Assembly: GCA_028692765.1 (NCBI GenBank)
Contig: JAQUWT010000005.1
Coordinates: 1 to 60,956, forward strand
Source of the DNA: Patescibacteria group bacterium
GTDB lineage: Bacteria; Patescibacteriota; Patescibacteriia; Patescibacteriales; UBA12465
Direction of reading: 5' to 3'
Length of the DNA: 60,956 nt
Shown: positions 23,991-32,863 of the stretch, in pieces
Layout of the letters: each line of letters starts with the position of its first letter
Position numbering within the stretch: the first letter of the stretch is position 1
Position numbers and translations under genes: made by a program
The notes under the pieces: model-generated
Database searches by the model: none
Told to the model about the DNA's origin: nothing
The model's input: only the letters and a program-made list of their open reading frames with translations

Positions 23991-24020
23991 AAGCTTGATT
24001 AAAATAAATAAACTAAATAT

Positions 24021-24680
24021 TTATTCTTTCCGCCACTTGCGGCTGTAAGGATAAATATCTTCATAAGGACGACTAACACCGTCATCGCTACCCGCATCAG
24101 TCTCCTGATGTTTAGAGACAAAAGGTTTTTTGCTACCGACCTTATGTTTTTCTGGTTTATTCTTCTTAGGGTTGCTAAGAGACTTGAAATGTAAATTATT
24201 TCTTTCTTTTTTAATAGCGTCCAAATAAGCCAAATACAGCGAGGCAGAAGCTCTAAATTCCGGTTCATCAGCCAAATGGGGATTAACTATTTTCCAATAA
24301 ATTTTTTGCTTTGCTGGGCCGGGCATAGCCGCTTCATACTCGGCGCGAAATGCGCTCATCCGCTTATCATAGGCCATAATTTCCGGAAGAAAATCCTGAA
24401 AATCAGATAAAGATAAATCCGGACGCCTTAGAAAATTCCTAATTTTTTCTTCTCTAGTCGGAGCACCCTCAATATTATTAGGAACGCTCAGAATTTCCTT
24501 TAAAGCCCCTTCGCTCTTAATAGGCTCTTCCGGCACCTCATCTTCACCTACCTTGTCTGGTTCCACTTCCGCCTCTTCCTTATTTTCCAGATAATTATAA
24601 GAGTGATTTTCTGTCTGAATCTCATCACGCTCGTTGGCGTGATCAAAAATATGTAAAAAATTTAATTGTTTTTCCGGCAT
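24021..24680 (-). CDS. Hypothetical protein with an acidic N-terminus and a basic C-terminus
   Basis: 219 aa ORF in the AT-rich islet. I recognise no motif. Confidence 0.5.
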   Translation of the reverse strand: MPEKQLNFLHIFDHANERDEIQTENHSYNYLENKEEAEVEPDKVGEDEVPEEPIKSEGALKEILSVPNNIEGAPTREEKIRNFLRRPDLSLSDFQDFLPEIMAYDKRMSAFRAEYEAAMPGPAKQKIYWKIVNPHLADEPEFRASASLYLAYLDAIKKERNNLHFKSLSNPKKNKPEKHKVGSKKPFVSKHQETDAGSDDGVSRPYEDIYPYSRKWRKE

Positions 24681-24707
24681 ATTTTGAGTGAATTTAATAT
24701 TTTATAA

Positions 24708-25349
24708 TTACACCTCTTTGGTTATCTGGCCGGCAATATCAAAAATAATCTCATTAGCTTCATCAACATTGATTTTCTCACCGACTTTATTAGCTTCTAT
24801 CTTTGAAAAAAAGTCAGAAATGTTAATTGATTTTAATTTATTATAAATAATATTGGCATTATCTTCAGGCTTAAGCGTATTATAAATAATGATATTATTT
24901 TTATTAAAATCATTATACAATTCCAAAAAAGAATTAAAGTCTGGAAGCATACCTTTCTGTTTATAAATCTTAAATTCCGATTCTAATCTTTCTAAAATAT
25001 CTGGTCGATATTTTTGCAACCTATCCCATCCCCGGACAAAAGCGTCTTTTTCTCTGACTATATTCTCTGCCGCCTCATCTGTCTGCTTATTAATATCAAG
25101 ATTAAAATCTTCCTGGCGTAGATGGCCTAATTCGTGAATAATAACATTCCAAGAATAAAAAATATCTCCATCTGGATACCTAACTTGAAAATTATGTCCA
25201 TCTTCAAGTGTGCGACCGGAACCCTGACACTCTAACGGCCATCCGAGAGATCTTAATTTCGGAGAAATTTTTTTTGGCAATTCAGATAAAGGTATAATAT
25301 TTTCTCTTTTAATTTTAAATTTTTCTTGTCTAATGGCCTCAAAATTCAT
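24708..25349 (-). CDS. Putative zinc metallopeptidase (HExxH, ImmA/IrrE-like)
   Basis: NVIIHELGHLRQ is the only recognisable motif; 213 aa; AT-rich. Confidence 0.45.
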   Translation of the reverse strand: MNFEAIRQEKFKIKRENIIPLSELPKKISPKLRSLGWPLECQGSGRTLEDGHNFQVRYPDGDIFYSWNVIIHELGHLRQEDFNLDINKQTDEAAENIVREKDAFVRGWDRLQKYRPDILERLESEFKIYKQKGMLPDFNSFLELYNDFNKNNIIIYNTLKPEDNANIIYNKLKSINISDFFSKIEANKVGEKINVDEANEIIFDIAGQITKEV

Positions 25350-25377
25350 ATTCTTTTATATTAACAAATCAGATTAA

Positions 25378-25737
25378 CTAGTAAGAACCAAGAACGCAAA
25401 CGATTAAATTAAATATTGGTGACTTCTTAAAAGGCTCGGCCTTAGGCGAGGAAATAGATTGAATAATTCGCAAAATTCCTTCCGTATTAGCACAATCAGT
25501 CGCATATTTCTTACCATCAATAGATGCTAATTTCAGTTGTCCCCAATTTGGGGACGACTGAAAATCTGGAAATTCTCTTGTTTTTACTTTCTCCCAATAC
25601 TGACGAGGACTTGGACTTTCACTTAATACTTCACAGACATCAACAACTGAAAACCACCATTCTTTTTTGTAAATGATTTTTCTAACCTTCTTTCCCTGAA
25701 ATAAACTAATGTGATGTTTGTTAACTTGTTTTTTCAT
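25378..25737 (-). CDS. Bro-N domain protein (phage antirepressor-type DNA-binding domain)
   Basis: SLFQGKKVRKIIYKKEWWFSVVDVCEVL matches the Bro-N core pattern (F..vR....e.WF...DVc..L); 119 aa. Confidence 0.55.
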   Translation of the reverse strand: MKKQVNKHHISLFQGKKVRKIIYKKEWWFSVVDVCEVLSESPSPRQYWEKVKTREFPDFQSSPNWGQLKLASIDGKKYATDCANTEGILRIIQSISSPKAEPFKKSPIFNLIVCVLGSY

Positions 25738-25804
25738 AGTTTTAATGATTAGTTAATAATACTAACCATTATAACGAAAACGTAATGAAGAAAACTTAAA
25801 ATTT

Positions 25805-26434
25805 TTATAAAATAACTTCCTCGCTATCACCAAAAAAACTTATTTTATTTTCTTCCAGCAAAAAACACTGGTCATCCTTTAAAACTTTTAAAGGCAAAGA
25901 CAAAGTTTTTGCCTTTTGCATAATTTCTATTTTTTTATCATCCGTAAAATGGCATTTTATTAAAAAAGGAAAGTAATTTAAGGCTCTGAAATCGGTGAGG
26001 CCGTGCCTATCCCTGTCTTTCTTCCAGCCGCCAACCTCAATAGTCGGGCACATAATATACGAACCAGAACTGCAGCCGATATAATTTAATCCTTGTCCTA
26101 AAAGTTTGCCAAGAATCGCGTCAAACCCTGTTTCCCTAACACTTTTCAATAAATAAAATGGATTGCCGCCTGAAACCTGAATAACATTACGGTCGGCGAA
26201 AAAATTCATAATTTCCGCCTCAGTTTTTCCATTAATATCAAAATGCTGGAAATCAATATCGGAATCTTTCATTAATTCAAAATATTCTTCCATATACTTG
26301 AGATATTCCTCATCCTTAACAGCCTTAAGAGCCGTATCGATAAACCCGATTCTTAAATTCTTTCTTTCTATATCAAGTAAACTATAACCTTTATCTAATA
26401 GAAATTTTTCCTTAGAAGCTAATATTATTTTCAT
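25805..26434 (-). CDS. Peptidase E / S51-family (class I glutamine-amidotransferase-like fold) protein
   Basis: IQVSGGNPFYLL and YIGCSSGSYIM (nucleophile Ser region) motifs; 209 aa; begins 3 nt after the secA stop. Confidence 0.6.
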   Translation of the reverse strand: MKIILASKEKFLLDKGYSLLDIERKNLRIGFIDTALKAVKDEEYLKYMEEYFELMKDSDIDFQHFDINGKTEAEIMNFFADRNVIQVSGGNPFYLLKSVRETGFDAILGKLLGQGLNYIGCSSGSYIMCPTIEVGGWKKDRDRHGLTDFRALNYFPFLIKCHFTDDKKIEIMQKAKTLSLPLKVLKDDQCFLLEENKISFFGDSEEVIL

Positions 26435-26437
26435 ATA

Positions 26438-29179
26438 TTACTGCCCGCAGCATTTCTTATACTTCTTCCCACTGCCGCAAGGACAGGGGTCATTGCGGCC
26501 GACAGTCTTACCAGATTCATCCTTGGCTTTTTCCCTGACCAAGTCAAAATTATCTCGCTTGGCGCTTAATTTTTCCATCTCTTTGGCTGCACCTTCCAAT
26601 TTAAGATTCTTCGGCTGTTCGCTCTGCGATAAATTTAAGAGGGCCGCCGGCGCCATTTTTAAGGCGTCACCGGTACGATAAATGGAATAGACCAATTGCT
26701 GGCGGATAAGGTCGAGCAGTTCATGATAGAGGCGATAGGCTTCTTTTTTATATTCCACCAGCGGATCGCGCTGGCCATAGCCGCGCAAACCGATGCCGCG
26801 GCGCATATAATCCATGGTTTCCAAGTGATCGACCCACATCTGGTCGATTGAGCGCAAAAGCATGCCCTTGGCTACTTCCACAAAATCGATTCCGGCTTGG
26901 GTAAAATCGGAAACTAAGAGATTATAGGTATCGGCGGCTAATCCTTCCGCATAATCTAAAACCTTTTGGCGGCCGGCATCGCCGCCTTCTCCGGCCAGTT
27001 CTGTAAGCTTGTCTTCCTGCCCGGAAACATTGAGCATCGCCTGCAAGGTCTCCGCTATTTCCTTCAGATTCCAATCGCCGCTCTTATCGCCGGCAGTATG
27101 GAAGACCACCACTTTAGCGATTTCTTCCTTGACCTGTGCGTCTACAAGAGCATTAAGTCTAACTAAGGGAGAATCTTCGCCTTCTTTAGTTTCCGCCTCC
27201 GAGGCCTCCAATATTTCCCGGCGCCGGCGATAAATCGCTTCACGGTGCTTATTGATAACATCATCGTATTCGACTAGATGCTTGCGGAGATCAAAGTTAT
27301 TCCCTTCCACCTTCTTCTGGGCTGATTCCAATGATTTGGAAATCATGCCGTTTTCAATCGGCACATCCGGCGGCAATTTCAAAGTTTTCATCATCGCCTT
27401 CATCCGGTCGCCGCCAAAAATCCGCATCAAATCATCTTCAGTGGAAACGTAGAATTGAGAAGAACCGGGGTCACCTTGGCGACCGGCGCGTCCGCGCAGC
27501 TGATTATCAATACGGCGAGATTCGTGCCTCTCCGTGCCAATCACGTGCAAACCACCGAGCGCTTTCACTTTCTCCTGCTCCGCTTTTGCTTCGGCCACGG
27601 CCGATTCATCATTAGTGTCAGGATTACCGCCGAGAATAATATCAACGCCGCGGCCGGCCATATTAGTGGCCAAAGTGATGGCGCCGGAACGTCCCGCTTG
27701 AGCGATTATCTCCGCTTCTTTCTGATGATTTTTGGCATTTAACATTTGCGGACGCAAACCTTCGCGCTCCATCATGTTGGCTAAAAGCTCATTCTTTTCG
27801 ATAGAAATGGTACCGACCAGAACCGGCTGCCCTTTTTCATTACGCGCTTTAATTTCCCGGATAACGGCGGCAAACTTATCTTCTTCCGTGCGATAGATTA
27901 AATCGTTCAAATCCTTGCGGATATTGGGTTTATTAGTGGGAATGACCACGGTTTCAAGCTTGTATATCTTATAGAACTCTTCCGCTTCGGTTAAGGCCGT
28001 ACCGGTCATGCCGGAGAGCTTGTCATACATGCGGAAAAGATTTTGAAAAGTAATGGTAGCCATCGTCTGCGATTCTTTCTGCACTTTTACTCCTTCCTTC
28101 GCTTCAATTGCCTGGTGCAAGCCTTCGCTATAGCGCCTACCCTGCATCAAGCGCCCAGTGAATTCGTCAACGATAATAATTTCTCCGTCCTTAACCACAT
28201 AATCGCGGTCGCGCTTAAATAAAACCATCGCTTTTAAAGCCTGTTCCAGATGATGGACGTCCTTGACGCCGCCGGATACATAGATATTGCCGACGCCCAG
28301 CCACTCTTCAATCTTATTAATCCCGGCTTCGGTCAGAGTCGCCGCCTTCAGCTTCTCATCAATATTATAATCTTCATTTTCGGTTAAACGCTGCACCAGC
28401 TGAGAAAATTTCATGTATTTATCCGTCGACTCTTCCGCCGGCGCGCTGATAATGAGCGGGGTGCGAGCCTCATCGATTAGAATCGAATCGATTTCATCAA
28501 CGATGGCATAATGCAAGGAGCGCTGAACGGTCTGGCCTAGAGTATAGGCCATATTATCGCGCAAATAATCAAAACCGAATTCATTGTTGGTGCCGTAAGT
28601 GATATCGCAATAATAGGCATCCCGGCGAGAAATCGGCCGAAAGTGGCGCAAACGTTCATCATATTGGCTTTCATCGCTGTACTCAGGATCATACTTGAAA
28701 GCGGCATCATGGACGATGACACTGGTACTTAAACCAAGAGCGTGATAGAGCGGCGCCATCCAGCCGGCACCGACGCGAGCCAAATAATCGTTCACGGTAA
28801 TCAAATGTACGCCTTGGCCGCTTAAAGCATTAAGATATAAAGGCAGAGTTGCCACTAAGGTCTTACCTTCACCGGTTTTCATTTCCGCAATCTGGCCGCG
28901 ATGCAAAACCATGCCGCCGATTAACTGTACGTCGTAATGTCTCTGGCCCAAAATTCTTTTGGAAGCTTCGCGCATATTGGCGAAAGCTTCCGGCAAAATT
29001 TCATCTAGACTCAGACCTTGTTTGATTCTTTCCTTAAATTCCAGGCTTTTGGCCAAAAGTTCCTCATCGCTTAAAGCCTGGAAAGACGCTTCTAATCCAT
29101 TAATCTTTTCCACGGTTTTTCGCAATTCTTTGATAATTTTTTCATTCGGATCTCCGAAAATTTTGTTGAGCAAATCCAT
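26438..29179 (-). CDS. secA: Preprotein translocase ATPase SecA
   Basis: MKTGEGKTLVA Walker A, DEIDSILIDEARTPLIIS and the C-terminal zinc motif CPCGSGKKYKKCCG; 913 aa. Confidence 0.97.
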   Translation of the reverse strand: MDLLNKIFGDPNEKIIKELRKTVEKINGLEASFQALSDEELLAKSLEFKERIKQGLSLDEILPEAFANMREASKRILGQRHYDVQLIGGMVLHRGQIAEMKTGEGKTLVATLPLYLNALSGQGVHLITVNDYLARVGAGWMAPLYHALGLSTSVIVHDAAFKYDPEYSDESQYDERLRHFRPISRRDAYYCDITYGTNNEFGFDYLRDNMAYTLGQTVQRSLHYAIVDEIDSILIDEARTPLIISAPAEESTDKYMKFSQLVQRLTENEDYNIDEKLKAATLTEAGINKIEEWLGVGNIYVSGGVKDVHHLEQALKAMVLFKRDRDYVVKDGEIIIVDEFTGRLMQGRRYSEGLHQAIEAKEGVKVQKESQTMATITFQNLFRMYDKLSGMTGTALTEAEEFYKIYKLETVVIPTNKPNIRKDLNDLIYRTEEDKFAAVIREIKARNEKGQPVLVGTISIEKNELLANMMEREGLRPQMLNAKNHQKEAEIIAQAGRSGAITLATNMAGRGVDIILGGNPDTNDESAVAEAKAEQEKVKALGGLHVIGTERHESRRIDNQLRGRAGRQGDPGSSQFYVSTEDDLMRIFGGDRMKAMMKTLKLPPDVPIENGMISKSLESAQKKVEGNNFDLRKHLVEYDDVINKHREAIYRRRREILEASEAETKEGEDSPLVRLNALVDAQVKEEIAKVVVFHTAGDKSGDWNLKEIAETLQAMLNVSGQEDKLTELAGEGGDAGRQKVLDYAEGLAADTYNLLVSDFTQAGIDFVEVAKGMLLRSIDQMWVDHLETMDYMRRGIGLRGYGQRDPLVEYKKEAYRLYHELLDLIRQQLVYSIYRTGDALKMAPAALLNLSQSEQPKNLKLEGAAKEMEKLSAKRDNFDLVREKAKDESGKTVGRNDPCPCGSGKKYKKCCGQ

Positions 29180-29302
29180 ATATTTATATTAAGCGCTACA
29201 ATGACAAAAATTACGCCAAAAGCGCTGTTTTCAGTATAATATGCTTTGCGTATTTAATAAATATTGACTTATACATAATAACGTGTCAAAAAGCCAAAAG
29301 TA

Positions 29303-29335
29303 AAAGCCCGCTATCGTCATTGATGGCGGGCTTTC
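29303..29335 (-). terminator. Rho-independent terminator after the nrd operon
   Basis: AAAGCCCGC..GCGGGCTTT hairpin, followed on the minus strand by TTACTTTTGG. Confidence 0.6.
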
Positions 29336-29349
29336 CCCTAATTTTTTTA

Positions 29350-31029
29350 TTAAGCCTGGCAAGATTGGCAATTTTGCAAATCTTTCAAGCGCCCAAACTG
29401 CTGGGCGGCATTGACGCTGTGCTGGTAATAGAGAGTCTTGATGCCGAGCTGCCAAGCATACATGTATAAAGCATTGACTTCTTTCACGGGCACGGCGGGA
29501 TTAATCGCCAGATTCAATGACTGGCCTTGGTCGATATATTGCTGGCGCGCGGCCGCTTGCTCGATGACTATCTTCTGATTGATTTCCTGGAAAGTTTTGA
29601 AAACTTCTTTCTCTTCCAAGGACAAAAATTCCAAATGCTGGACCGAACCGTCATTGTCGCGGATGCTATGCCAGACTTCTTTGGAATTCTGACCCTTCTC
29701 GGCCAATAATTTTTCCAGCTGCTTATTCTTAATCGTCACTTTCATCTTATCAATATCTTTTACATAGCAATTCGACCAAATCGGCTCGATGCTTTGGGAA
29801 ACCTGCCCCAAGATAAAGGCAGAGGAAGTAGTGGGGGCGATGGCCATTAAAGTCGTATTGCGGCGGCCATAGCCTTTCAATACTTCCGGTTCGCCGTATT
29901 CGGCCGCCATCTTTTTCGAAGCTGCTTCCGCTTGTTCGCGGATGTCCTTAAATATAGCGACATTAAGACGGGCACTTTCCTTCCCCTCCCAAGGCAGCAT
30001 CTTGCTCTGCAACAGCGAATGCCAGCCTAAAACCCCCAGACCCAAAGCGCGATTGGCGACGGCAAAATTATAGGCGCGCTCCATAAAGCTGAAAGATTGG
30101 CGCTTTCTGGCATCGCCGCTGTCGCGTAAAGCTTCCAAGCGGCTAATAAAATCACTCATCACCGCGTCCAAGAAATATACCAAAGTTTCGACGGCATCCG
30201 TATCTTTCCATTCATCGTAATGTAAGAGATTTAAAGAAGACAAATCACAGACGAAAGACCACTCTTCGTTGGAGGGCAATAAAATTTCCGAGCAGAGATT
30301 ACTAGCCTTAATCTTCAAGCCTTTATCTTTATAGACATCGACCGTATTATTATTGACCGTATCGGTAAAGAAAATATAGGGATAGCCCATCTGGCTGCGG
30401 CGCTGTAAAACTTTGGCCCACAAAGCTCTTTTATCCGCATCGCCGGCTTCCATCGCTTTCATCCAGGCATCGGTCACGGTTACACCGTAAGTCATTTCTT
30501 GAATCGGATTGCCTTCCGTGCCGATGTTTAAAAATTCGTCGGCATCGGGATGCTCCAAGGGCAGATAAGGGGCGAAGTGGCCTCTTCTGACCGAACCCTG
30601 GCTGACGACATTGACCAAAGTTTCAAAGAGCTGCATAAAATGAACCGCTCCGGAAGAATGGCCGTTATCCTTAATCGGCGCGCCGCGATGGCGCAAATCG
30701 CCGAAATAGCCGGCCGTGCCGCCGCCATATTTGCTCATCATCCCCACCTCCGCCTGCGTAAAGAGAATCTGCCCCATATCGTCGCCCAAATATGAAGAAA
30801 AACAGCTGATAGGAAAACCTTTGGACAGGCCGAAATTCGACCAAATCGGCGAAGCCAGGGAATAATAGCCGCGCGCCATGTAGTCATAGAATTTATCGGC
30901 AAAACCGGGTTTATTTAAAATCTTTTCCGCCGTCTCGGCGATATCCCGAATCCGCTGCTCAGCGCTAAGACCGGGATTAAGATAGCCCTTAGCCAAAAAA
31001 GAGCGGGAGTATTCATTTAACCATTGCAT
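29350..31029 (-). CDS. nrdA: Class I ribonucleotide reductase alpha subunit, short form without an ATP-cone
   Basis: The NLCSEI active-site cysteine region and C-terminal redox cysteines (CQSCQA) are present. The 559 aa protein starts directly in the catalytic core. Confidence 0.85.
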   Translation of the reverse strand: MQWLNEYSRSFLAKGYLNPGLSAEQRIRDIAETAEKILNKPGFADKFYDYMARGYYSLASPIWSNFGLSKGFPISCFSSYLGDDMGQILFTQAEVGMMSKYGGGTAGYFGDLRHRGAPIKDNGHSSGAVHFMQLFETLVNVVSQGSVRRGHFAPYLPLEHPDADEFLNIGTEGNPIQEMTYGVTVTDAWMKAMEAGDADKRALWAKVLQRRSQMGYPYIFFTDTVNNNTVDVYKDKGLKIKASNLCSEILLPSNEEWSFVCDLSSLNLLHYDEWKDTDAVETLVYFLDAVMSDFISRLEALRDSGDARKRQSFSFMERAYNFAVANRALGLGVLGWHSLLQSKMLPWEGKESARLNVAIFKDIREQAEAASKKMAAEYGEPEVLKGYGRRNTTLMAIAPTTSSAFILGQVSQSIEPIWSNCYVKDIDKMKVTIKNKQLEKLLAEKGQNSKEVWHSIRDNDGSVQHLEFLSLEEKEVFKTFQEINQKIVIEQAAARQQYIDQGQSLNLAINPAVPVKEVNALYMYAWQLGIKTLYYQHSVNAAQQFGRLKDLQNCQSCQA

Positions 31030-31073
31030 AATATTTTATAAATAATTAATTAGAAAATAGACATATCATCAAT

Positions 31074-32369
31074 CTAAAAGAGATCGTCGCCAGTAATGCT
31101 CTGGCTGCGCTTATTATAATTAATCGAGCGCTTGACGAAAAAATCTCCGTGCTTGGTGGTCACGATTTCTTCATCGAACCATTCCGTTTCTTCCAATAAC
31201 TTTTCATCGACCGGAAAAATCCTTTCCAAGCCGATGCTGTCTAGCGAATTGTTCAAGCGGTTCTTGATAAATTCGATAATGACAGCCTTGGGTAAAAATT
31301 CCAATTCTCCGGCATCCAGAATCCAATCAAGCACTTTCTTTTCCGAATCGAAGGCGACGCGGCAAGCCTGGATAATCTTTTCTTTAAAACTGTCGTCAAA
31401 CCATTCCGGATGTTCGGCTTTAATCAGATTAATCACCTCGATGCCGAACATGCCGTGGATTTGCTCTTCCTTGGAGGTCGCTTCGACGGCGTTGGAAATG
31501 CCTTTAAATAAATTCTTATGCTTATTGAAGGACATCATTATCAGGAATTGGGAAAACAAAGAAACGTGCTCGATAAACAAAGAGAAAAGCAGAATGGCCA
31601 AAGCGTATTCTTTGTTATCTTCGCTCTTGGCGGTGCTGATTGAATATTCAAGATATTCCACCCGCTCCATTAGAACCGGCATTTCCTTAATGCGGGCAAA
31701 TTCCTCATTCAGGCCGAGGATTTCCAAAAGATGGGAATAGGCATCCATGTGCCGCACTTCGCTTTCGGCAAAAGTGAAGCCGACCGCGGCGATTTCCGGC
31801 TTCGGCATCTTCTTGTAAATATCCCCCCAGAAAGCTTTAACCGCCACCTCTATCTGAGCGATAGCCAGCATTGAATGCTGGATGGCTTGGCGCTCGACCG
31901 GAGTGACCCTGGTCTTAAAATCCTGAATATCGCTCAGATAATTAAATTCCGTATGTATCCAATAGGAATGGCGAATAGCGCTGACGTATTCGTACAGCTC
32001 CGGATATTCGTAAGGTTTGAGATTAGTCCGCTTCTTAAAAATATCGCGGCGGCGCATCGCCGAGCGCTTGTCGCGATAAAGGATATAGGCCTTGGCGGCC
32101 TCTTTGAAGGGGCTAGCCATCAAAGCTTGTTCGGCCAAATCCTGAATTTTTTCGACACTAAGATGGCCGCCTTCAATAACGGCCGCCTCGGCGCGCGCGG
32201 CCACTTGCGACGCCAAAAAGGAAGCGTCGTTTTCTTCTCCCTGCCCGGCGGCGGTCAGAGCCTTGCCGATGGCAACAGCGATTTTTGCTTCATCGAAAGC
32301 GACGACGCTGCCGTCTCTTTTCTGCACGGAAAAAGAATATTTCCGCTGATTGTCTTTTATTTCATCCAT
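31074..32369 (-). CDS. nrdB: Class I ribonucleotide reductase beta (radical-generating) subunit with an N-terminal ATP-cone
   Basis: Residues about 12-100 carry the ATP-cone signature (VQKRDGSVVAFDEAKI..VEKIQDLAEQAL..AYILYRDKR). A ferritin-like R2 core follows, with IAQIE, ESEVRHMDAY (ExxH + Tyr), IEH and EEQIHG ligand motifs. Confidence 0.85.
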   Translation of the reverse strand: MDEIKDNQRKYSFSVQKRDGSVVAFDEAKIAVAIGKALTAAGQGEENDASFLASQVAARAEAAVIEGGHLSVEKIQDLAEQALMASPFKEAAKAYILYRDKRSAMRRRDIFKKRTNLKPYEYPELYEYVSAIRHSYWIHTEFNYLSDIQDFKTRVTPVERQAIQHSMLAIAQIEVAVKAFWGDIYKKMPKPEIAAVGFTFAESEVRHMDAYSHLLEILGLNEEFARIKEMPVLMERVEYLEYSISTAKSEDNKEYALAILLFSLFIEHVSLFSQFLIMMSFNKHKNLFKGISNAVEATSKEEQIHGMFGIEVINLIKAEHPEWFDDSFKEKIIQACRVAFDSEKKVLDWILDAGELEFLPKAVIIEFIKNRLNNSLDSIGLERIFPVDEKLLEETEWFDEEIVTTKHGDFFVKRSINYNKRSQSITGDDLF

Positions 32370-32398
32370 AAAAATAAAAATCTTTTAATAAATACATA

Positions 32399-32417
32399 TA
32401 ACTACATATAGAGTAGT
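32399..32417. promoter_or_regulatory. NrdR-box-like palindrome 1
   Basis: ACTAC-ATATAGA-GTAGT inverted repeat. The 16-mer TAACTACATATAGAGT resembles the acaCwAtATaTwGtgt consensus. It lies just downstream of the predicted -10. Confidence 0.55.
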
Positions 32418-32428
32418 AATTAATGATT

Positions 32429-32457
32429 ATTATACTATATATTGTATTCACTCGCAA
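32429..32457 (-). promoter_or_regulatory. Sigma70-type promoter of the nrd operon
   Basis: The minus strand reads TTGCGA-N17-TATAAT, about 60 nt upstream of the nrdB ATG. Confidence 0.6.
32432..32447. promoter_or_regulatory. NrdR-box-like palindrome 2
   Basis: ATACTATATATTGTAT is a 14/16 self-complementary match to the NrdR box consensus. It sits between the -35 and -10 elements. Confidence 0.65.
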
Positions 32458-32480
32458 GCACGAAAAAATAAGGCAAAAAT

Positions 32481-32508
32481 AAAAAAACGGACGCCATGCT
32501 AGCGTCCG
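32481..32508 (-). terminator. Rho-independent terminator after hpf
   Basis: On the minus strand, CGGACGC-TAGCATG-GCGTCCG is followed by T7. Confidence 0.75.
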
Positions 32509-32539
32509 CTTCCTACTTATCCCCAGAAAAATTATTTTT

Positions 32540-32863
32540 TTATTTCCCGCGCTTCTGATCGCGCAGCTTCTCGCGGTGGCTGATAATGATTTCTTCCAAA
32601 TGATCTTTTACCTTATCAATCGCCTTATATAAATCGGTTTCGGTCTTCTCTACCCTTAAAATTTCGCGGGGAATCTGCAAATTTATTTCCGCTCGGAAAA
32701 TCTCGCCCTTATTCTGGCCGCCGACTGATTTTTCCAATTCCATATCGCAATTGATAACCGGGGTATCGCCCAGATATTTCTCCAACATATCCGCTTTTGC
32801 CTGAGCATAATCGCGAATAGCATCCGTTAATTCCAAATGAGTGGTCTTGAGATTAATCTTCAT
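32540..32863 (-). CDS. hpf: Ribosome hibernation-promoting factor / RaiA family (short form)
   Basis: MKINLKTTHLELTDAIRDYA start and an S30AE-family pattern; 107 aa. Confidence 0.85.
   Translation of the reverse strand: MKINLKTTHLELTDAIRDYAQAKADMLEKYLGDTPVINCDMELEKSVGGQNKGEIFRAEINLQIPREILRVEKTETDLYKAIDKVKDHLEEIIISHREKLRDQKRGK

Follow-up and report, generated by a model that had tools for sequence, protein, structure and literature searches.

A probable class Id ribonucleotide reductase operon with an ATP-cone on the radical-generating subunit in a small Patescibacteria genome

We studied a pair of genes in contig JAQUWT010000005.1 of the Patescibacteria assembly GCA_028692765.1, a genome of 880 kb that is 99% complete. 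The whole stretch analysed, 60,956 nucleotides, is here called the window. It contains two adjacent genes of a class I ribonucleotide reductase (RNR), nrdB for the radical-generating subunit (β) and nrdA for the catalytic subunit (α), exactly at the positions given in the original prediction for this DNA and both on the minus strand, see Table 1. On the basis of sequence comparison we read the locus as a bicistronic nrdB-nrdA operon that encodes an aerobic RNR of class Id (NrdAi/NrdBi) with the ATP-cone on NrdB, with a probability of about 0.88.

The original prediction held that NrdB begins with an ATP-cone fused to a ferritin-like core and that NrdA has no cone, and the profile searches agree on both points. 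The Pfam profiles for the cone and for the small chain (Ribonuc_red_sm) match NrdB with 73.7 bits (cut-off 25.8) and 190.3 bits respectively, so the N-terminal 100 residues do score as an ATP-cone. When the 559-aa NrdA was searched against Pfam no match to PF03477 was found, only Ribonuc_red_lgN, a short all-alpha N domain at residues 4-70, and the barrel domain. NrdA is therefore cone-less, as proposed, but it does not start directly in the catalytic barrel, because the short N domain comes first. Further, NrdA scores 768 bits against TIGR02510 ('NrdE-prime'), a curated model of short alpha chains, well over its cut-off of 602. As only 44 nt separate the stop of nrdB from the start of nrdA, an upstream exon encoding a cone cannot have been missed.

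A start codon downstream of the cone would change this picture. The ATG at 32369 is the sole ATG 5' of the cone, and the cone is conserved at the protein level in every homologue examined (82-84 aligned sequences), which makes the start secure. The next in-frame start is a GTG at codon 15, and even from there the nucleotide-binding motif K17-R18 would survive. A six-frame profile search of the whole assembly finds exactly three ATP-cones, those of NrdB (76.9 bits), NrdR and NrdD, the last two on contig 17. The RNR barrel domain is found only in this nrdA.

The assignment to class Id is based on solved structures. The best relative of NrdB is Leeuwenhoekiella blandensis NrdB (5OLK; 591 bits, E 1e-176, residues 15-431, cone included), followed by the cone-deleted L. 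blandensis construct 6SF4 and by the class Id NrdB of Flavobacterium johnsoniae (6CWO, 316 bits), while class Ia, Ib and Ic structures score at most 85 bits. NrdA matches class Id α structures end to end, with 710 bits for 6DQX and 603 bits for 6DQW.

The residues point in the same direction. The metal ligands of NrdB are E174, E204, H207, E267, E302 and H305, an E/E/H/E/E/H set with Glu first in which H207 completes the ExxH motif. The Lys and Trp typical of class Id are present as K178 and W181 on helix B, next to Y211 and T298, and both these four and the ligands are invariant across 84 cone-bearing homologues. We checked at six named residues how the 5OLK chain is shifted from the published numbering; L. 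blandensis E170, K174, W177, E200, Y207, E263, T294, E298 and H301 correspond to E174, K178, W181, E204, Y211, E267, T298, E302 and H305 in the window. Both motifs highlighted earlier are real: IAQIE ends at the first ligand, and ESEVRHMDAY contains E204, H207 and Y211. NrdA has the catalytic set C76, C246 and C261 (the Cys triad), N244 and E248, the radical-transfer pair Y534-Y535, aligned with 6DQX, and a C-terminal redox pair C554-x-x-C557, the protein ending in CQSCQA. The single Cys of NrdB is C336. The structural matches, the gene order, the first ligand and the Tyr all fit the NrdAi/NrdBi architecture that had been proposed by likeness to L. blandensis.

The retained Tyr needs a comment, since it had been described as the radical-site Tyr. 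The residue is present, but the role of radical store does not hold, as in class Id the oxidising equivalent is on a Mn2(IV,III) cofactor (Rozman Grinberg et al. 2019, PMC6754362). From the position of Y211 one might argue for an enzyme with a tyrosyl radical and a di-iron or dimanganese(III,III) site, in the style of class Ia or Ib. We consider such an enzyme very improbable: the same Tyr is kept in the NrdB of L. blandensis and Facklamia ignava, in which no tyrosyl radical is seen and whose activity depends on Mn. In addition, the Glu first ligand, K178 and W181 do not vary among the homologues, and the class Ia, Ib and Ic structures lie far below the class Id scores.

The cone-on-NrdB architecture has been characterised in L. 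blandensis, a marine flavobacterium (Rozman Grinberg et al. 2018, eLife, PMC5794259), and the β-then-α gene order has been described for RNRs with a β-cone (PMC9669993). L. blandensis NrdAi/NrdBi (5OLK, 6SF4/6SF5) shares with the window the N-terminal cone, the short linker, the NrdBi core and a cone-less NrdAi of about 560 aa, as well as the metal ligands, the helix-B Lys and Trp, the non-radical Tyr, the ..DDLF C-terminal tail and most cone-cone interface residues. The 2018 paper reports that all hosts of a cone-bearing NrdB carry another RNR too (PMC5794259), and this is true of both organisms: here it is class III (nrdD-nrdG), in L. blandensis class II. The hosts also differ, a flavobacterium against an 880-kb Patescibacteria genome, and in the window a tandem NrdR operator is predicted.

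Two other class Id systems are less similar. The F. johnsoniae and Actinobacillus ureae enzymes (6CWO-6CWQ for β; 6DQW, 6DQX for α) belong to the same subclass and have the same minimal α, but the NrdB chains deposited for them (PDB, about 307-344 residues) cover no more than the core of the window NrdB, residues 108-431, and their own core is more distant from it than that of L. blandensis (316 against 591 bits). The NrdB of F. ignava (PMC6187632) has, like the window, a cone on a class Id β, but in addition it carries a glutaredoxin domain, absent from the window NrdB, giving the order glutaredoxin, ATP-cone and NrdBi.

The functional positions of the cone are intact. In the family alignment 21 of its residues vary hardly or not at all, and all 21 are retained in the window; the set includes K17, R18, F25, K29, E73, Q76, D77, E80, L83, M84, K93, Y95, I96, Y98 and R99. 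At the interface between cones, L. blandensis D73, M80, K89, I92/I93 and R95 have as their counterparts D77, M84, K93, I96/L97 and R99 in the window.

A number of observations weigh against our reading. The identity to L. blandensis NrdB is about 75% in the core and only about 42% in the cone. One more interface residue, D77 of L. blandensis, aligns to Q81 in the window; the 'Asp76' of the paper is Glu76 or Asp77 by residue count along the 5OLK chain. Relative to the core, the cone in this genus (L008-L016, L022) changes at about double the rate seen in Flavobacteriaceae or in other Patescibacteria, and some loosening of its role in the genus is conceivable. The usual spacing of NrdR operator boxes is 31-32 bp, while it is 33 bp here. 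Finally, the metal content, the dATP inhibition and the formation of β4 are extrapolated from the L. blandensis orthologue.

The fast divergence raises the question of whether the same-genus cone is a decaying remnant that no longer works as a switch, leaving control to NrdR alone. Among same-genus NrdB proteins the cone identity averages 0.50 at a core identity of 0.85-0.90; at that core level it is 0.74 among Flavobacteriaceae and 0.72 among other Patescibacteria. In the cone, nonsynonymous differences make up a proportion (pN) of 0.25-0.36, in the core one of 0.03-0.09; the synonymous proportion (pS) is saturated (0.74-0.96), so a dN/dS of the cone is unusable and only the raw proportions are given. 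The window also departs from the consensus at several well-conserved cone sites, such as L70, where 70 of 83 sequences have Pro, and A79, where 80 of 83 have Val. On the other hand, the window and every genus member keep all 21 family-invariant positions, including K17-R18, F25, K29 and those in helices 3 and 4, the Pfam score is well above the cut-off, pN is clearly lower than the saturated pS, and none of the genus members lacks the cone or has a truncated one. A decayed cone is thus unlikely, and we retain the interpretation of a cone-bearing class Id NrdB.

Table 1. Features of the nrdB-nrdA locus, in window coordinates.
Feature	Positions	Strand	Description
nrdB	31074-32369	minus	431 aa; ATP-cone fused to predicted class Id (NrdBi) radical-generating subunit
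NrdB ATP-cone domain	32061-32330	minus	residues 14-103; Pfam PF03477
NrdB ferritin-like metal-binding core	31206-32030	minus	residues 114-388; Pfam PF00268
nrdA	29350-31029	minus	559 aa; cone-less predicted class Id catalytic subunit (NrdAi)
sigma-70-type promoter, TTGCGA-17 nt-TATAAT (predicted)	32429-32457	minus	best promoter-like site in 29150-32600; 10/12 matches
NrdR box 1 core (predicted), CAATATATAG	32435-32444		between -35 and -10 hexamers; exact match to palindrome CWATATATWG
NrdR box 2 core (predicted), CTATATGTAG (operon strand)	32402-32411		downstream of -10; one mismatch to core
intrinsic-terminator-like hairpin with U-rich tract	29298-29339	minus	after nrdA

The promoter, the NrdR boxes and the terminator indicate that nrdB and nrdA form a bicistronic operon under probable NrdR control. 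The hairpin after nrdA has a minimum free energy of -21.1 kcal/mol and a z-score of -3.72, and none of 200 shuffled sequences folds as well. On the upstream side the hpf gene ends in its own hairpin with a U-run (32514-32482), before the nrdBA promoter, and on the other side secA follows the nrdA terminator and has its own promoter-like site. The nrdBA promoter would thus be covered by a tandem NrdR operator. The region just beyond secA, 24001-26000, is an AT-rich gene islet with a G+C of 0.33, compared with about 0.46 elsewhere.

Such operators are rare in this genome. We searched its 880 kb for pairs of CWATATATWG cores with at most one mismatch each, 20-45 bp apart, and found only three, each spaced exactly 33 bp. 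One is that of nrdBA and another lies directly upstream of nrdR-nrdD on contig 17. Furthermore, a box pair with this spacing occurs at about -75/-42 in eight of ten same-genus orthologous loci. The NrdR, NrdD and NrdG proteins of contig 17 pass the NCBIfam cut-offs, NrdR with 192 bits against TIGR00244 (cut-off 124.65). The third pair, on contig 13 at 81168-81210 (starts 81168/81201), lies between a divergent small gene and another gene and has no link to RNR. By eye, we take the small divergent gene to be a metal-sensor repressor and the other to be MarR-like. This pair is probably a chance match or another kind of operator.

Elsewhere the genome encodes a thioredoxin and a superoxide dismutase (SOD) of the Fe/Mn type, and the presence of the latter shows that superoxide is encountered by this organism. 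A gene resembling thioredoxin reductase reaches 316 bits, a little short of the curated cut-off of 343 bits.

Taken together with published work on the cone and its oligomerisation (PMC5794259) and on the cofactor (PMC6754362), a mechanism can be proposed. NrdB would most likely assemble a dimanganese cofactor that superoxide oxidises to Mn2(IV,III), the radical initiator, and its conserved Tyr would hold no radical. NrdA would be a minimal catalytic subunit, with a specificity site and no overall-activity site, and its C-terminal CxxC would be re-reduced by the thioredoxin system of the genome, presumably by free thioredoxin. Overall activity would be set by the cone on NrdB. With ATP bound, β2 would form the active α2β2 complex; dATP, probably two molecules per cone, would pair the cones and turn β2 into an inactive β4, giving α2β4 or α4β4 complexes that are non-productive. 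NrdR bound to the two promoter boxes would add repression at the level of transcription. Since the genome also carries the oxygen-sensitive class III nrdD-nrdG, the class Id operon would serve as its oxygen-tolerant alternative.

It should be kept in mind that what is observed here is the domain architecture, the family membership, the conserved residues, the layout of the operon with its operator sites, and the distribution. The metal identity, the dATP-induced tetramerisation and the repression by NrdR would follow by analogy with work on L. blandensis, F. ignava and F. johnsoniae.

The C-terminal tail of NrdA differs among relatives. We read NrdA tails in a tblastn-anchored search of related loci. 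Of the 73 with a complete nrdA end, 13 have an NrdA without the C-terminal Cys, and all belong to a Kaiserbacteria/Nomurabacteria-labelled clade of 13 rows. This tail-less variant has the same type of operon and lies in the same 84-row clade of cone-bearing NrdBi as the window. The cone of its NrdB has a conserved Cys pair (..MCVQA...KKC.DG..), while the window has the NrdA tail and no Cys in its cone. None of the 73 loci lacks both the tail and the cone cysteines. The tail-less loci listed are L037, L049, L057, L060, L064, L072, L075, L083, L087, L089, L090 and L093.

How common is this operon? Its nearest public relatives bear the titles Parcubacteria, Falkowbacteria or Patescibacteria group bacterium. 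Of 15 other species in the genus, 10 encode a full-length NrdB with a cone, at 78-87% identity. Such a protein was not found in any of 45 species from other genera of the family and order that were sampled, and it was found in 4 of 400 other Patescibacteria species sampled evenly from the phylum, where 75 had an NrdB of any kind. In a Flavobacteriaceae sample of 201 species 34 had a cone-bearing NrdB and 12 a cone-less NrdBi. A scan of one genome per species gives more than 583 relatives. Among the best 80 of these, sequences from many Patescibacteria classes and from Flavobacteriaceae are intermixed at 63-69% identity. The 80 loci were selected for their similarity to a Patescibacteria query, and in 79 of them the cone-bearing NrdB is followed on the same strand by a cone-less NrdA with the same first residue. 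The protein database holds thousands of matches; nearly all of the best 120 have both domains and carry generic names such as 'subunit beta'.

The earlier view that this form would be notable in a genome of the Candidate Phyla Radiation (CPR) goes too far. The trait is a minority one there, but hundreds of Patescibacteria examples are already public. The architecture, the β-then-α order and the co-occurrence with a second RNR are also published (PMC5794259, PMC9669993). Our literature search found no paper joining ribonucleotide reductase, Patescibacteria and ATP-cone. In the listed papers naming CPR groups 'NrdB' was not found, and a paper on the oxic adaptation of CPR does not mention RNR. 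The CPR sequences are public, and we do not assert that they have been discussed in print.

A FastTree phylogeny places the window NrdB with its genus (support 99) within an 84-sequence clade of cone-bearing NrdB (support 99). Flavobacteriaceae form one clade beside or inside the Patescibacteria-labelled rows, but as the loci are biased towards the query and the root falls on long branches, we read no direction of transfer between these two groups from the tree.

The closest characterised relatives are flavobacterial, and the family is patchy across phyla, with some public bins labelled archaeal, Bacillota or Pseudomonadota holding near-identical copies. One could therefore suspect that the operon is foreign to this genome, a mis-binned flavobacterial or phage fragment. 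This is extremely unlikely, because the operon lies mid-contig, in 61 kb of even G+C, between frr-rseP-hpf and secA. Further, the order frr-rseP-hpf-nrdB-nrdA-secA recurs in five other same-genus assemblies, and the NrdB falls in a supported clade with same-genus copies.

Some public bins with unexpected labels, Woesearchaeota, Methanosarcinales, Algicola or Clostridiales, carry a cone-bearing NrdB (L029, L031, L035, L042, L095). Two of these, L029 (Woesearchaeota) and L042 (Algicola), hold copies that hardly differ from those of Patescibacteria or Flagellimonas; L031 and L035 are each other's partners, and L095 sits on a long branch. These are either mis-binned contigs or very recent transfers. 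Many NrdBi representatives of 560-820 aa (P0122, P0124, P0127, P0130, P0131 and others) match the query in two to three separated stretches, as would be expected if inteins or other insertions interrupted NrdB. There are none in the window's gene.

The content of the hpf-secA slot itself varies between members of the genus, as a comparison of window 29180-32540 with L102 in G013, L103 in G002, L104 in G005 and L105 in G011 shows. Besides the window, no fewer than five other same-genus assemblies for which the flanks were read have the class Id nrdB-nrdA pair there. In three species, G013, G002 and G005, it holds a different class I operon, with α before β; that of G013, where the genes were read, encodes an 818-aa NrdA (NF005101, 1136 bits) and a 329-aa NrdB. 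One species, G011, has no operon in the slot. The alternative operon in G013 and G005 has the same promoter layout as nrdBA, with -35, box 1, -10 and box 2 in that order, but in an alignment of the two operon types without row L008 there is little similarity outside the consensus elements. An ancestral position of the alternative operon in the slot is not supported, as it is sited elsewhere in three other genera of the family.

It is tempting to see the place between hpf and secA as a single slot under NrdR control in which the class I RNR operons of the genus are swapped like cassettes. The class Id operon would have displaced the α-then-β operon or been displaced by it, and the constraint on the cone, partly released once NrdR took over control, would now let the cone change about twice as fast as elsewhere. 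We regard this as a tentative suggestion that is more probably wrong than right.

Our analysis adds little to the general picture of this enzyme: its architecture and mechanism were published in 2018, and many unlabelled Patescibacteria examples already sit in public databases. For annotation, the generic 'subunit beta' should become class Id NrdBi with ATP-cone. The polymorphic slot neatly illustrates how one RNR can be replaced by another through horizontal transfer. If the cassettes are indeed exchanged in this way, the slot would provide a natural series for asking to what extent allosteric control is still needed in an ultra-small genome. For the organism, a genome of 880 kb and episymbiont type retains three ATP-cone sensors, NrdR, NrdD and NrdB, together with both an oxygen-sensitive and an oxygen-tolerant RNR, which argues that it makes its own deoxynucleoside triphosphates across oxygen regimes.

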